In this document: piece by piece, positions 284 to 3,382 of the stretch
Numbering within the stretch: position 1 is the first letter of the stretch
Layout of the letters: every line of letters begins with the position of its first letter
DNA from: a virus
Taxonomy: Duplodnaviria; Heunggongvirae; Uroviricota; Caudoviricetes
Reading direction: 5' to 3' (one strand)
DNA: 3,382 bases
IMG/VR virus record: IMGVR_UViG_2617270938_000006
Notes under the pieces: model-generated
Databases searched by the model: none
What the model was told of the DNA's origin: nothing
The model's input: the letters and a program-made list of their open reading frames with translations, nothing else
Made by a program: the position numbers and the translations under genes

Positions 284-421
284 TCATACTCCTGCTCCTG
301 TCAGGGTTTTGGCGTAATTCTTCAGTATTCGGTAATCGGTCAAAACAGAACCGGGGAAACGATATAAGCGCAGACGCCCCCAGCGGTGGCGAAGAAGTTC
401 TGCCATATAAAACTCAAACAT
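284..421 (-). CDS. Small phage protein, YlcG-like by position (45 aa from the ATG overlapping the rusA stop; 40 aa if it starts at the internal ATG 406-404)
   Basis: Minus-strand frame [45 protein letters not shown], stop TGA at 286-284. The first ATG (421-419) shares one base with the rusA TGA stop (ATGA coupling). Located between rusA and Q, where ylcG lies in DLP12. Sequence identity to YlcG not verified. Confidence 0.45.
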   Translation of the reverse strand: MFEFYMAELLRHRWGRLRLYRFPGSVLTDYRILKNYAKTLTGAGV

Positions 422-783
422 CATTCATTCCCCATTTCGGTGATGGTCAGTTCCAGCCTCCCACCTTTGGTAACAGGCATCTTCACAACGCGGTAATCAA
501 CGACCTGAGCATCATCCAGCCAGAAACCTGCTTTGGTGAGTGCGTCAAAAGCGGCTTTTTGCAGATTATCCAGGTCACGGCGACGGCGATCCGGCATGTG
601 GCACTCAATACGGATTTTCACTGGCATAGCCAGGCCGATATCCAGCATTGCGTTTTTAATGATTCGGGTGACGTTATCGCGGTATGCCTGCCCTTCTGCG
701 CTGATGTGTGTGCGCCCGCGATTATGGCGGTAGTAGCGGTTATTGCTCGGCGGCCAGGGTAGTGTGATGTGGTAAGTATTCAC
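421..783 (-). CDS. rusA: Crossover junction endodeoxyribonuclease RusA (Holliday junction resolvase), 120 aa
   Basis: ORF-track protein [38 protein letters not shown]... is near-identical to E. coli RusA as I remember it. Acidic residues D70, D72 and D91 (RRDLDNL...LDDAQ) are present. Start codon is GTG (783-781) preceded by AAGAGGGGG about 10 nt upstream, with an in-frame TAA two codons upstream. Confidence 0.95.
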
Positions 784-893
784 GCCTTAATTACCCCCTC
801 TTTCAGCCAGATATTTCCCGGCCTTTCTGTTATCAGAAATCCACTGAAAGCACAGCGGCTGGCTGAGAAGATAAATAATAAACGGGAGGCGGT
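784..893. promoter_or_regulatory. Divergent intergenic joint between rusA (-) and the plus-strand operon; putative promoter/operator region
   Basis: 110-bp non-coding gap between divergently oriented first genes. Contains both ribosome-binding sites (GGGAGG 884-889 for the 894 ORF; rusA SD on the other strand), an AT-rich stretch GATAAATAATAAA (870-882) and an 8-bp inverted repeat TCAGCCAG (803-810) / CTGGCTGA (859-866). No -35/-10 pair can be called reliably by eye. Confidence 0.3.
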
Positions 894-1085
894 ATGCACA
901 AAGCATCTCCTGTTGAGTTAAGAACGAGTATTGAGATGGCACATAGCCTTGCTCAAATTGGAGTCAGGTTTGTGCCAATACCAGTAGAAACAGACGAAGA
1001 ATTTCATACGTTAGCCACATCCCTTTCACAAAAGCTGGAAATGATGGTGGCGAAAGCAGAAGCAGATGAGAGAGACCAGGTATGA
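894..1085 (+). CDS. Hypothetical small acidic phage protein (63 aa), first gene of the plus-strand operon
   Basis: ATG at 894 with strong SD GGGAGG 4 nt upstream; 63 codons; net acidic (about 11 D/E against 6 K/R). Its TGA stop (1083-1085) overlaps the ATG (1082-1084) of the next small ORF. Size and position recall the orf61/orf63-type small genes of lambda's pL operon, unverified. Confidence 0.6.
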   Translation: MHKASPVELRTSIEMAHSLAQIGVRFVPIPVETDEEFHTLATSLSQKLEMMVAKAEADERDQV

Positions 1086-1165
1086 CAACCACTGAATGCA
1101 TTTTTCTGGCAGCGGGCTTCATATTCTGTGTGCTTATGCTTGCCGACATGGGGCTTGTTCAATGA
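1082..1165 (+). CDS. Candidate 27-aa hydrophobic micropeptide MTTTECIFLAAGFIFCVLMLADMGLVQ (single predicted transmembrane helix)
   Basis: Absent from the ORF track (too short). ATG 1082-1084 overlaps the upstream stop as ATGA; its own TGA stop (1163-1165) overlaps the ATG (1162-1164) of the downstream ORF, again as ATGA. It bridges exactly the 77-nt gap between the two flanking ORFs. About 20 consecutive hydrophobic residues. Confidence 0.4.
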   Translation: MTTTECIFLAAGFIFCVLMLADMGLVQ

Positions 1166-1377
1166 CACCTCAGCAAGAAAACGCCCTTCGCAGCATTGCC
1201 CGTCAGGCTAATTCTGAAATCAAAAAAGCCAGACAGCATTTTCCGGATAAAAACGTCGATGACATTTGCCGTAGCGTACTAAAGAAGCACCGCGAAACGG
1301 TAACGCTGATGGGATTCACACCGACTCATTTAAGCCTGGCGATCGGCATGTTGAACGGCGTCTTTAAGGAACGGTGA
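1162..1377 (+). CDS. Hypothetical small basic phage protein (71 aa)
   Basis: Frame of track ORF 1096..1377, but I favour the internal ATG at 1162 (MTPQQENALRSIARQANSEIKKARQHFPDKNVDD...) because it is stop/start-coupled to the micropeptide and the 1096 ATG has no SD. Net basic (about 12 K/R against 7 D/E). Function unknown. Confidence 0.5.
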   Translation: MTPQQENALRSIARQANSEIKKARQHFPDKNVDDICRSVLKKHRETVTLMGFTPTHLSLAIGMLNGVFKER

Positions 1378-1398
1378 ACATGAAAAGCAAAATCATCA

Positions 1399-1426
1399 GG
1401 GAGCTACAGGCTCCTTTTTTATTATT
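1399..1426 (+). terminator. Putative Rho-independent terminator
   Basis: GGAGC (1400-1404), 5-nt loop TACAG, GCTCC (1410-1414), followed directly by TTTTTTATTATT (1415-1426); 22 nt past the stop at 1377. The stem is only 5 bp (extendable to 7 with G-U/A-U at the cost of the U-tract), so strength is uncertain. Confidence 0.35.
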
Positions 1427-1475
1427 CGCATTTACCCTCAAGCGTATTAACCAACAATTCAGGGATTAATGAAAG

Positions 1476-1694
1476 ATGGCAGACATCATTGATTCAGCAT
1501 CAGAAATCGAAGAATTACAGCGCAATACAGCAATAAAAATGCGTCGTCTGAACTACCAGACTGTATCCGCAACTCATTGTTGTGAGTGTGGCGATCCGAT
1601 AGATGAGCGAAGACGCCTAGCTGTTCAGGGTTGTCGGACTTGTGCGAGTTGCCAGGAGGAGATCGAACTTAAGAACAAACAATGGGGACTGTGA
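1476..1694 (+). CDS. TraR/DksA-family C4 zinc-finger protein (72 aa), likely RNA-polymerase secondary-channel binding regulator
   Basis: Exact C-x2-C-x17-C-x2-C spacing (Cys35, Cys38, Cys56, Cys59: HCCECGDP...GCRTCASCQ), the DksA/TraR zinc-finger signature. N-terminal D3-x-x-D6-x-A8 (MADIIDSA) matches the DxxDxA tip motif of this family. AGGGA about 10 nt upstream of the ATG. Confidence 0.85.
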   Translation: MADIIDSASEIEELQRNTAIKMRRLNYQTVSATHCCECGDPIDERRRLAVQGCRTCASCQEEIELKNKQWGL

Positions 1695-1741: not shown

Positions 1742-2020
1742 ATGTTCAGAATCATTTTTCCTAACACCTGGTACGTCGACCACCACGGCACTCCCTGCAA
1801 AATCCTGCGTTCTACCCACAACAAAGTTCACTACATCCGAAAAGGCAGAACATGTATCGCCAGCATGTTCCGCTTTAATCATGACTTTGAACCTGTGAAT
1901 AAAGCTGATGCAGATCGGATAGCAGAAGAGATCGAAACGGCAGAACACATTAAGAAGTTACGTGACATGCGTTCAAAAAGCAGAGGTAACCATGGAATCA
2001 TACAGCCTCACACTCGATGA
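1742..2020 (+). CDS. Hypothetical phage protein (92 aa) immediately upstream of, and overlapping, xis
   Basis: ATG at 1742 with SD GAGGTG 5 nt upstream. Overlaps the xis start by 29 nt in a different frame. The core WYVDHHGTPCKILRSTHNKVHYIRKGRTCIASMFRFNHDF loosely resembles small DUF4222-type prophage proteins as I recall them, unverified. Confidence 0.55.
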   Translation: MFRIIFPNTWYVDHHGTPCKILRSTHNKVHYIRKGRTCIASMFRFNHDFEPVNKADADRIAEEIETAEHIKKLRDMRSKSRGNHGIIQPHTR

Positions 2021-2363
2021 GGCCTGTCAGTTTCTTAAGATATCCAGACCAACCGCCACCAACTGGATACGAACAGGCCGCCTACAGGCAACACGTAAAG
2101 ATCCAACCAAGCCAAAATCTCCTTACCTCACAACACGGCAAGCCTGCATTGCGGCGCTTCAGTCTCCGCTGCATACTGTCCAGGTGAGCGCGGGTGATGG
2201 CATAACAGAGGAAAGAAAATGTCACTCTTCCGCAGAAATGAAATATGGTATGCCTCGTATTCGCTCCCGGGCGGGAAACGAATTAAGGAATCTCTTGGCA
2301 CAAAGGACAAGCGGCAAGCTCAGGAGTTGCACGACAAGCGAAAAGCAGAACTCTGGCGAGTAG
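1992..2363 (+). CDS. xis: Excisionase (Xis), AlpA/Xis-family helix-turn-helix DNA-binding protein; 123 aa if the frame is read to its stop
   Basis: ATG at 1992 with SD AGAGGT 4 nt upstream (the track's 1962 start is a GTG without SD). N-terminal [37 protein letters not shown] is a typical excisionase HTH/wing and matches my memory of P22/DLP12-type Xis. Lies directly upstream of int. The frame stays open to 2363, 145 nt into int in another frame, so the 3' boundary is less certain than the 5' end. Confidence 0.75.
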
Positions 2364-3382
2364 AAAAGCTAGGGGATTTACCTGATGTCACTTTTGAAGA
2401 GCCCTGCCTAAGATGGCTTGAGGAAAAAGCTGATAAAAAATCTCTCGATTCAGATAAAAGCCGGATTGAGTTCTGGCTTGAACATTTTGAGGGTATAAGG
2501 CTTAAAGATATCTCGGAGGCAAAGATTTACTCTGCTGTAAGCAGAATGCATAACAGAAAGACGAAAGAAATATGGAAACAGAAAGTTCAGGCCGCCATCA
2601 GGAAAGGTAAAGAACTGCCTGTTTATGAACCAAAGCCAGTATCAACTCAGACAAAGGCAAAGCATCTTGCCATGATAAAGGCCATTCTCCGTGCTGCAGA
2701 ACGCGACTGGAAGTGGCTGGAAAAAGCGCCTGTCATCAAGATACCAGCGGTCAGAAACAAGCGAGTCAGATGGCTGGAAAAGGAGGAAGCAAAACGCCTT
2801 ATTGATGAGTGCCCCGAACCACTGAAATCTGTCGTCAAGTTTGCGCTGGCAACTGGTCTGAGAAAGTCGAACATCATAAATCTGGAATGGCAACAAATCG
2901 ACATGCAGCGACGAGTTGCCTGGGTGAATCCAGAAGAGAGCAAATCAAACCGCGCCATTGGTGTGGCGCTGAACGATACCGCCTGTAAAGTGTTGCGTGA
3001 TCAAATAGGCAAGCATCACAAATGGGTGTTTGTACATACCAAGGCGGCTAAGCGAGCAGATGGAACATCAACGCCTGCGGTCAGGAAGATGCGCATCGAC
3101 AGCAAGACATCATGGCTATCAGCTTGTCGTCGTGCAGGAATTGAAGATTTCCGTTTCCATGACCTCAGACACACCTGGGCAAGCTGGCTGATTCAGTCAG
3201 GCGTCCCATTATCAGTGCTTCAGGAAATGGGCGGATGGGAGTCCATAGAAATGGTTCGTAGGTATGCTCACCTTGCGCCTAATCATTTGACAGAGCATGC
3301 GAGGAAAATAGACGACATTTTTGGTGATAATGTCCCAAATATGTCCCACTCTGGAATTATGGAGGATATAAAGAAGGCGTAA
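2219..3382 (+). CDS. int: Phage integrase, tyrosine site-specific recombinase (P22/DLP12 IntD-type), 387 aa, complete
   Basis: ATG at 2219 with SD GAGG about 7 nt upstream; TAA at 3380-3382. N-terminus [33 protein letters not shown] and C-terminus ...[29 protein letters not shown] match my recollection of P22 Int / DLP12 IntD. Catalytic signature visible: R215 (TGLRKS), H314-x-x-R317 (FHDLRHTW), Y349 (VRRYAHL). Confidence 0.95.

Follow-up and report, generated by a model that had tools for sequence, protein, structure and literature searches.

A probable gene for a 27-residue membrane peptide between orf63 and orf61 in the exo-xis block of lambdoid phages

The micro-ORF at the orf63-orf61 junction

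We analysed a DNA stretch of 3,382 nucleotides (nt) from the IMG/VR virus record IMGVR_UViG_2617270938_000006 (the window; positions refer to it unless another record is named), which comes from a defective lambdoid prophage similar to DLP12 and represents its exo-xis block. Between orf63 and orf61 of this block lies a short open reading frame (ORF) of 27 codons, which is called the micro-ORF in the following. We consider it likely that this is a real, translationally coupled gene of the lambdoid early leftward operon which codes for a 27-residue, probably membrane-inserted peptide.

Three ORFs listed for the plus strand are relevant here: 894..1085 (63 aa), 1082..1165 (27 aa, starting with ATG), and 1096..1377 (93 aa). 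The last one has an in-frame ATG at 1162, which would lead to a form with 71 aa. The ATG of the micro-ORF overlaps the TGA of orf63 (1083-1085) in the ATGA at 1082-1085 (..CAGGT ATGA CAACC..), and its own TGA overlaps the ATG of the 71-aa form at 1162-1165 (..GTTCA ATGA CACCT..). The original prediction of a 27-aa frame with an ATGA overlap at each neighbour could be reproduced for the ORF, its translation and both four-base overlaps. The arrangement is that of a coupled operon, as the start overlaps the upstream stop, the stop overlaps the downstream start, and all genes are on one strand. The overlap at 1082 survives where a DNA methyltransferase gene stands in for orf63.

It had been argued that a double ATGA is unlikely to be due to chance. 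This argument is weak: when both ATGA ends are fixed, 50% of the dinucleotide-preserving shuffles of the 76 inner bases leave the frame open. Shuffles that are open and at the same time equally hydrophobic make up 0.4%. It is the comparative evidence, rather than the double overlap, that makes the case for more than chance.

Selection on the micro frame

For the comparative analysis, about 340 homologous loci were gathered from viral contigs, metagenomes and phage records. Each distinct change, defined by site and allele, was counted once, and the expectation was calculated with the codons of the consensus, taking into account the transition bias that was observed. The expected synonymous share in the micro frame is 27%. 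Two seemingly divergent Orf61 proteins (P0069, P0075) were left out because they come from error-ridden, frameshifted contigs. When genome collections were scanned with Orf63, most hits were contaminating lambda DNA in unrelated assemblies, and diversity was not increased.

At the amino-acid level, purifying selection acts on the micro frame. We counted 15 synonymous and 15 nonsynonymous changes, which corresponds to a ratio of nonsynonymous to synonymous polymorphism (pN/pS) of 0.37 (p=0.0065). When only variants seen at least two times are considered, the counts are 13 and 9 (pN/pS 0.26, p=0.0016). The frame from 1096, which extends Orf61, has 7 synonymous and 16 nonsynonymous changes (pN/pS 0.97, p 0.55), and the third forward frame has 6 and 23 (pN/pS 1.55, p 0.88). 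The neighbouring 31-aa ORF, which served as a negative control, has 10 and 23 (pN/pS 0.91, p 0.47). Among the other genes of the block, the 71-aa form of orf61 resembles the micro frame in its ratio (27 and 35, pN/pS 0.52, p 0.0081), and orf73 has 45 and 61 changes (pN/pS 0.52, p 0.00077). For orf63 the signal is weak (16 and 36, pN/pS 0.85, p 0.34), though its product has a solved nuclear magnetic resonance structure (PMC10869804).

The four common polymorphisms (positions 1093, 1111, 1153 and 1162) are each found at a third codon position of the micro frame. An identical peptide is encoded in 283 of 336 loci (84%), with 40 distinct DNA haplotypes. The frame is rarely damaged in these 336 loci: there is a single frameshift, on a contig with 1.3x coverage, two loci have ATA instead of ATG, and in five loci a stop occurs only at codon 27. 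In the same sample, orf61 has frameshifts or deletions in about 26 loci, many of which are copies of laboratory lambda. Conservation of the frame across homologous loci had been proposed as a check on the micro-ORF, and it is borne out by both the synonymous excess and the near absence of frameshifts.

The start of orf61

The micro-ORF would be an overlapping artefact if the downstream protein started at 1096, as the original prediction had pointed out. A start at 1096 or farther upstream is annotated in lambda, Phi24B, phage Turner and PHROG 303 and is used in the literature (PMC6213356, PMC8614690), and the 93-aa form has been deposited many times.

We compared this annotation with distant homologues. 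With the 71-aa form as query, tblastn retrieves homologues with 28-48% identity from phages of Klebsiella, Enterobacter and Vibrio. All four distant homologues that were examined start at a Met which aligns with 1162, the enterobacterial ones begin with MTP, and the extension is present in none of them. In three enterobacterial phages (Klebsiella, Enterobacter) this Met is ATGA-coupled directly to an upstream DNA methyltransferase gene, so that there is no room for a 22-residue extension. The sequence context of the enterobacterial Met is ..GGGAGGCnGC ATGA CGCC.., and in RothD it is ..ACGGAGGCAGC ATGA... The Vibrio homologue starts at the aligned Met after a gap of 44 nt which follows an unrelated gene.

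Several further observations on the loci argue in the same direction. Immediately before 1096, 260 loci have a TGA codon and 75 have GGA, and thus the upstream limit of the 1096 frame is not conserved between phages. No usable Shine-Dalgarno sequence precedes 1096; the best duplex with the anti-Shine-Dalgarno sequence has -3.9 kcal/mol at a spacing of 12 nt, which is weaker than the site before 1082. The extension is rich in Cys and His, and in the published AlphaFold model of Phi24B Orf61, which was computed for the 93-aa form, the fold is confined to residues 24-93 (PMC8614690). The Prokaryotic Genome Annotation Pipeline (PGAP) selects 1162 as start in matching genomes. As start codon at 1162, 268 loci have ATG and 72 have GTG, and this A/G variation is synonymous (CAA/CAG) in the last codon of the micro-ORF. 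Together with the pN/pS of 0.97 for the extension, this comparison shows that, as judged from sequence, orf61 starts at 1162 and not at 1096, and that the 93-aa Orf61 is an over-extension.

In lambda (NC_001416), the annotated orf61 (31024-30839) covers the bases of the micro-ORF in another frame. An A-run (window 1215-1220, near 30870 in NC_001416) is longer by one A in lambda than in the window and in the Shiga toxin (Stx) phages, and the Orf61 frame of lambda is thereby cut short, 29 codons downstream of the MTP start. What is annotated as orf61 in lambda thus combines a stretch read out of frame with a frameshifted remnant.

A discrete unit in two upstream contexts

The micro-ORF occurs in two arrangements in E. 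coli phages. It is found between orf63 and orf61 in 311 loci, and between a methyltransferase gene and orf61 in about 15 loci (e.g. PhiR30_1). In the second arrangement, the 1082 ATG is exactly where homology to the window sets in, and the ATGA overlap is kept. The E. coli methyltransferase ends with ..REAA before the stop codon, as does its Enterobacter orthologue, and the micro-ORF that follows it is preceded by a strong GGGAGG, which in the other genera serves orf61.

Compared to the phages from Klebsiella and Enterobacter, the E. coli phages have an extra 81 nt (ATGACAACC...GTTCA) between ATGACA repeats; in the phages from those two genera, the methyltransferase gene and orf61 meet at the orthologous junction without this unit. 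The extra unit with its ATGACA borders accounts for the origin of both overlaps in one event, which is another reason for not taking them as two independent coincidences. On the basis of these alignments, the micro-ORF is shown to be a discrete 81-nt unit which has been kept in two upstream contexts.

The coupling of an orf61 homologue to a DNA methyltransferase gene by ATGA was seen in Klebsiella and Enterobacter loci L229 (701-1136), L230 (48-922) and L232 (153-919). The link between these two genes thus extends beyond the exo-xis block of E. coli. In KpnBHU6, orf61 is immediately followed by a TraR/DksA homologue.

Distribution and previous annotation

By tblastn, the peptide was found in 176 phage records, in 175 of which it is full-length with at least 90% identity. 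It is 100% identical in lambda, 434, 933W, VT2-Sakai, Phi24B and DE3. In lambda, the micro-ORF extends from 31008 to 30925 on the minus strand and starts on the TGA of orf63. The 84 nt are present in 3142 of 5426 complete E. coli genomes (58%), at 4247 places. Lambda-identical exo-xis DNA also turned up in assemblies from Shewanella, Bradyrhizobium, Paenibacillus, Kitasatospora, Pseudomonas and others (L088-L101), for which contamination is the simplest explanation. Two unrelated proteins of 428 aa (P0081, P0082) in the 90%-identity cluster of the peptide are a clustering artefact.

The micro-ORF had been described as unannotated. This is correct for RefSeq with its PGAP annotation and for the lambda reference record. 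However, the exact 27-aa sequence has been deposited as "hypothetical protein" in several GenBank records from E. coli and in UniRef (A0A0A2SGE8_ECOLX), and it is found on 981 contigs. The peptide is thus already present in some records but is uncharacterised.

Papers on the exo-xis block list orf60a, orf63, orf61, orf73 and ea22 (PMC8614690, PMC6213356). The micro-ORF shares the conserved block, the operon and the phage distribution with orf60a, orf63, orf61 and orf73, which have been studied by Wegrzyn and Donaldson, but differs from these in being absent from the gene lists of both papers and in coding for the only strongly hydrophobic product of the block. It also differs from the annotated N-terminus of Orf61, as it is in a different frame while being physically inside the segment that was called, and deleted, as "orf61". 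In the published "orf61" deletions the whole annotated ORF has been replaced (PMC6213356), and thus the micro-ORF was removed as well. Overexpression of orf61 resulted in insoluble aggregates (PMC6213356).

The 31-aa "orf2313", which is reported in a review of lambda ribosome profiling (PMC8614690), is most simply matched to the ORF with an ATG start at lambda 30715-30620 (window 1380-1469), although the micro-ORF, when counted from stop to stop, also has 31 codons. An ORF of 31/29 aa (MNMKSKIIRELQAPFLLFAFTLKRINQQFRD) at 1374-1469, with an ATG at 1380, is annotated in phages 434 and Turner and is probably "orf2313". It encloses a terminator-like hairpin (1398-1416) followed by a T-run and lacks a coding signature (pN/pS 0.91).

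Properties of the peptide and initiation signals

The peptide has a grand average of hydropathy (GRAVY) of 1.62. Its core consists of the 16 uncharged residues C6-A21, which are located between E5 and D22 and have a mean Kyte-Doolittle value of 2.8. There is no Lys or Arg and the net charge is -2. The summed free energy on the Hessa scale is -3.4 kcal/mol for the 16-mer and -0.14 for a 21-mer, which is compatible with a membrane span but with a short core. The original prediction that the product is essentially one hydrophobic helix thus agrees with these values. Judging from its composition, the peptide is most likely a single helix that is inserted in the inner membrane.

The energy of the duplex with the anti-Shine-Dalgarno sequence is -5.3 kcal/mol before 1082, as compared to -4.7 before the short form of orf61 and -4.9 before orf73.

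Database searches did not assign the peptide to a family. There is no match in Pfam, PADLOC or PDB and no significant one in PHROGs or NCBIfam, the best sub-threshold matches being phrog_21538 (E 0.68) and TIGR02507 (E 0.034, 13.8 bits with a cut-off at 25). BLASTP does not align it with lambda Kil at E<=100. Promoter-like sites were not found on either strand between 900 and 1400. We also considered an RNA element, but this was ruled out as there is no Rfam match at E<=1 and the local RNA fold is weaker than that of shuffles (z = +1.64).

Gene order and prophage setting

The features of the window are listed in Table 1. On the plus strand the order is: orf60a/DUF1317 remnant, orf63, micro-ORF, orf61 homologue, 31-aa ORF, orf73, a DUF4222 gene, excisionase remnant, and intD. 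From position 812 on, the window and the exo-xis block of lambdoid phages share 99-100% identity. It matches E. coli chromosomes beside intD and a tRNA-Arg gene, and this neighbourhood is that of a DLP12-type attachment site. This exact junction was found in one piece in no complete E. coli genome.

The prophage has lost exo, bet, gam, N and the pL promoter. Due to the loss of pL, the micro-ORF in the window is probably silent, and this copy in a decapitated prophage is probably a relic of a functional gene.

Table 1 Features of the window. Positions are those of the 3,382-nt stretch.
Feature	Position	Strand	Basis or remark
rusA	421-812	-	left of 812; abuts the orf60a/DUF1317 remnant
orf63 homologue (DUF1382, 63 aa)	894..1085	+	Pfam PF07131, E 7.7e-31; PGAP in matching genomes; lambda orf63
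Shine-Dalgarno-like stretch TGAGAGAGA, weak	1067..1075	+	6 nt 5′ of the 1082 ATG
Micro-ORF, 27 codons and TGA, product MTTTECIFLAAGFIFCVLMLADMGLVQ	1082..1165	+	ORF list; comparative evidence
22-codon "N-terminal extension" of the 93-aa Orf61 (MHFSGSGLHILCAYACRHGACS)	1096..1161	+	judged spurious: other frame of the micro-ORF
Hydrophobic uncharged core, codons 6-21 of the micro-ORF (CIFLAAGFIFCVLMLA)	1097..1144	+	predicted membrane helix
orf61 homologue, 71-aa form	1162..1377	+	PGAP start; distant homologues; pN/pS 0.52
orf73, TraR/DksA-type protein	1476-1694	+	
Excisionase-like helix-turn-helix ORF	1992-2190		5′ of intD; labelled incomplete pseudogene by PGAP in matching genomes
intD	2219-3382	+	

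Expression and possible role of the peptide

We infer translation, localisation and function of the peptide from its sequence and its genomic context. In an intact phage, operon position and overlaps suggest that the micro-ORF would be transcribed together with exo, orf60a and orf63 in the pL operon after loss of repressor. A ribosome that ends translation of orf63, or of the methyltransferase gene in a minority of the phages, would stop at the UGA and restart at the overlapping AUG, aided by the weak Shine-Dalgarno sequence GAGAGA. After 27 residues it would meet the second UGA, which overlaps the AUG or GUG of orf61 and would support initiation there. As a consequence, the three products would be made in a linked ratio.

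Some observations weigh against a functional peptide gene. The family is young and narrow, with every copy being at least 90% identical, and divergent homologues were not detected by tblastn in phages and plasmids at E<=10, where the only match besides these copies was spurious. Neither the peptide sequence nor the ORF was found by full-text search, in the papers that were consulted, among them some on small proteins, or in the supplements that could be searched, and the review of lambda ribosome profiling names two additional peptides for this region, with 7 and 31 aa, but none with 27 aa (PMC8614690). The selection test is based on only 30 polymorphisms, and non-conservative variants exist (D22G in 10 loci, E5K in 4, G12V in 4 and I14K in 2). 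Part of the constraint on the frame could come from the delivery of ribosomes to orf61 rather than from the peptide. With 16 residues, the core is short for spanning a membrane, basic residues which would fix the topology are missing, the Shine-Dalgarno sequence before 1082 is weak, and the operon in the window is without its promoter.

Of the other explanations, the most serious one considers the 81 nt as a coupling bridge only, which is translated to bring ribosomes to orf61 while the peptide itself is functionless and becomes degraded. The ATGA overlaps at both ends and the weak Shine-Dalgarno sequence of orf61 itself are in line with this, and an insertion between ATGA-coupled methyltransferase and orf61 genes must stay open and in frame if coupling is to be kept. 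Non-conservative variants such as D22G and E5K do circulate. However, a bridge predicts that amino-acid changes are neutral, while pN/pS is 0.26-0.37 (p=0.002-0.007) in the micro frame, as compared to 0.91-1.55 in the control ORF and the other frames. Also, it does not account for one and the same peptide being encoded by so many haplotypes, nor for a hydrophobicity that is reached by only 0.4% of the open shuffles. Lambda has an intact micro-ORF in spite of the frameshift that truncates its orf61, although this concerns a single laboratory lineage. We thus consider a pure bridge to be unlikely.

Somewhat less likely still is a neutral insertion scar, i.e. a recent insertion of 81 bp which is open by chance, serves no purpose and has not yet decayed. 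The high similarity of all copies and their confinement to lambdoid phages of the E. coli type would be expected in this case, half of the shuffles are open as well, the ATGACA direct repeats at the borders are as expected for illegitimate recombination, and no published evidence for expression was found. A scar does not explain why the synonymous excess is restricted to the micro frame and is seen neither in the other two forward frames nor in the adjacent 31-aa ORF. Indels are nearly absent from the micro-ORF but have accumulated in the neighbouring orf61 of the same sample, and the segment has been retained in two upstream contexts.

The peptide had initially been compared to type I toxins and to Kil. 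A membrane-damaging toxin (type I toxin-like or holin-like), which causes depolarisation or growth arrest, would be a sub-case of a functional membrane peptide rather than an exclusive alternative, and we regard it as improbable. The peptide is small and strongly hydrophobic, and there are two indirect indications: the material obtained on overexpression of "orf61" constructs, which include the micro-ORF, was insoluble, and host survival after infection with Phi24B was higher when the region had been deleted (PMC6213356). On the other hand, the ORF is embedded in an operon and coupled on both sides, it has neither a promoter of its own nor an antisense promoter or RNA, and the peptide has no basic or amphipathic tail and lacks similarity to Kil or to any PHROGs, Pfam, NCBIfam or PADLOC family. 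In addition, early depolarisation would harm a phage that still needs an energised host.

The well-known type I toxins carry a basic or amphipathic segment. TisB, Ibs, ShoB, Ldr and Hok resemble the peptide in size and hydrophobicity, but the micro-ORF differs in being without an antisense or overlapping RNA that has its own promoter, without an independent transcript with a long, structured and regulated leader, in being ATGA-coupled on both sides and in coding for an acidic product. Lambda Kil (47 aa), an inhibitor of FtsZ, is likewise a small product of the early leftward (pL) operon which is dispensable for plaque formation, but it is unrelated in sequence and is a soluble protein, not a hydrophobic helix. 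The comparison with type I toxins and with Kil could thus not be upheld.

A start of Orf61 at 1096 (93 aa, as in Phi24B vb_24B_7c) or upstream (lambda 31024), with the 27-aa frame as an artefact, is hardly credible in spite of its wide use in annotation, given the homologue starts, the neutral evolution of the extension and the missing Shine-Dalgarno sequence.

We return to a functional membrane peptide, for which a comparison is provided by KdpF, AcrZ, MgtS and CydX. This class comprises single-helix inner-membrane proteins of E. coli which bind to larger membrane proteins. The peptide resembles them in its length (25-50 residues in this class), in having one predicted hydrophobic helix with short polar ends, in being easily missed by gene finders and in the frequent coupling within operons; KdpF is likewise not known to contain basic residues. 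It differs in being phage-borne and early-lytic instead of chromosomal, in its core of only 16 residues and in not being similar to any family. Our preferred guess is that this small peptide is bound to the membrane, where it modulates a membrane protein of the host or of the phage and acts in the early period of the lysis-lysogeny decision. If so, it could contribute part of the published "orf61" deletion phenotypes, since these deletions take the micro-ORF with them. It is possible, though we consider it rather doubtful, that lambda and most Stx phages have in the micro-ORF, under an orf61 annotated from the wrong start, a functional gene whose peptide, alone or together with Orf61, causes the reported effects on lysogenisation, host survival and Phi24B adsorption via a component of the host inner membrane while the choice between lysis and lysogeny is made.

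Implications for lambda and Stx phages

Lambda is the reference temperate phage, and its exo-xis block has been studied because it shifts the balance between lysis and lysogeny as well as prophage induction in Stx phages. If our interpretation is correct, the gene lists of lambda and of Stx phages would gain a membrane peptide, and the start of orf61 would move 66 nt downstream, so that Orf61 of Stx phages would have 71 instead of 93 aa. The deletions and frameshift constructs that have been published for orf61 would need to be re-read, and possibly the overexpression and structural models based on its annotated form as well. As 58% of the complete E. coli genomes carry the sequence, a correction of the annotation would affect thousands of records. 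The micro-ORF would also be an example of a micro-gene that has been inserted precisely between two coupled genes. The main value would be a corrected gene map of a model phage, to which the peptide adds an uncharacterised representative of a familiar kind, the small hydrophobic proteins of phages or bacteria.

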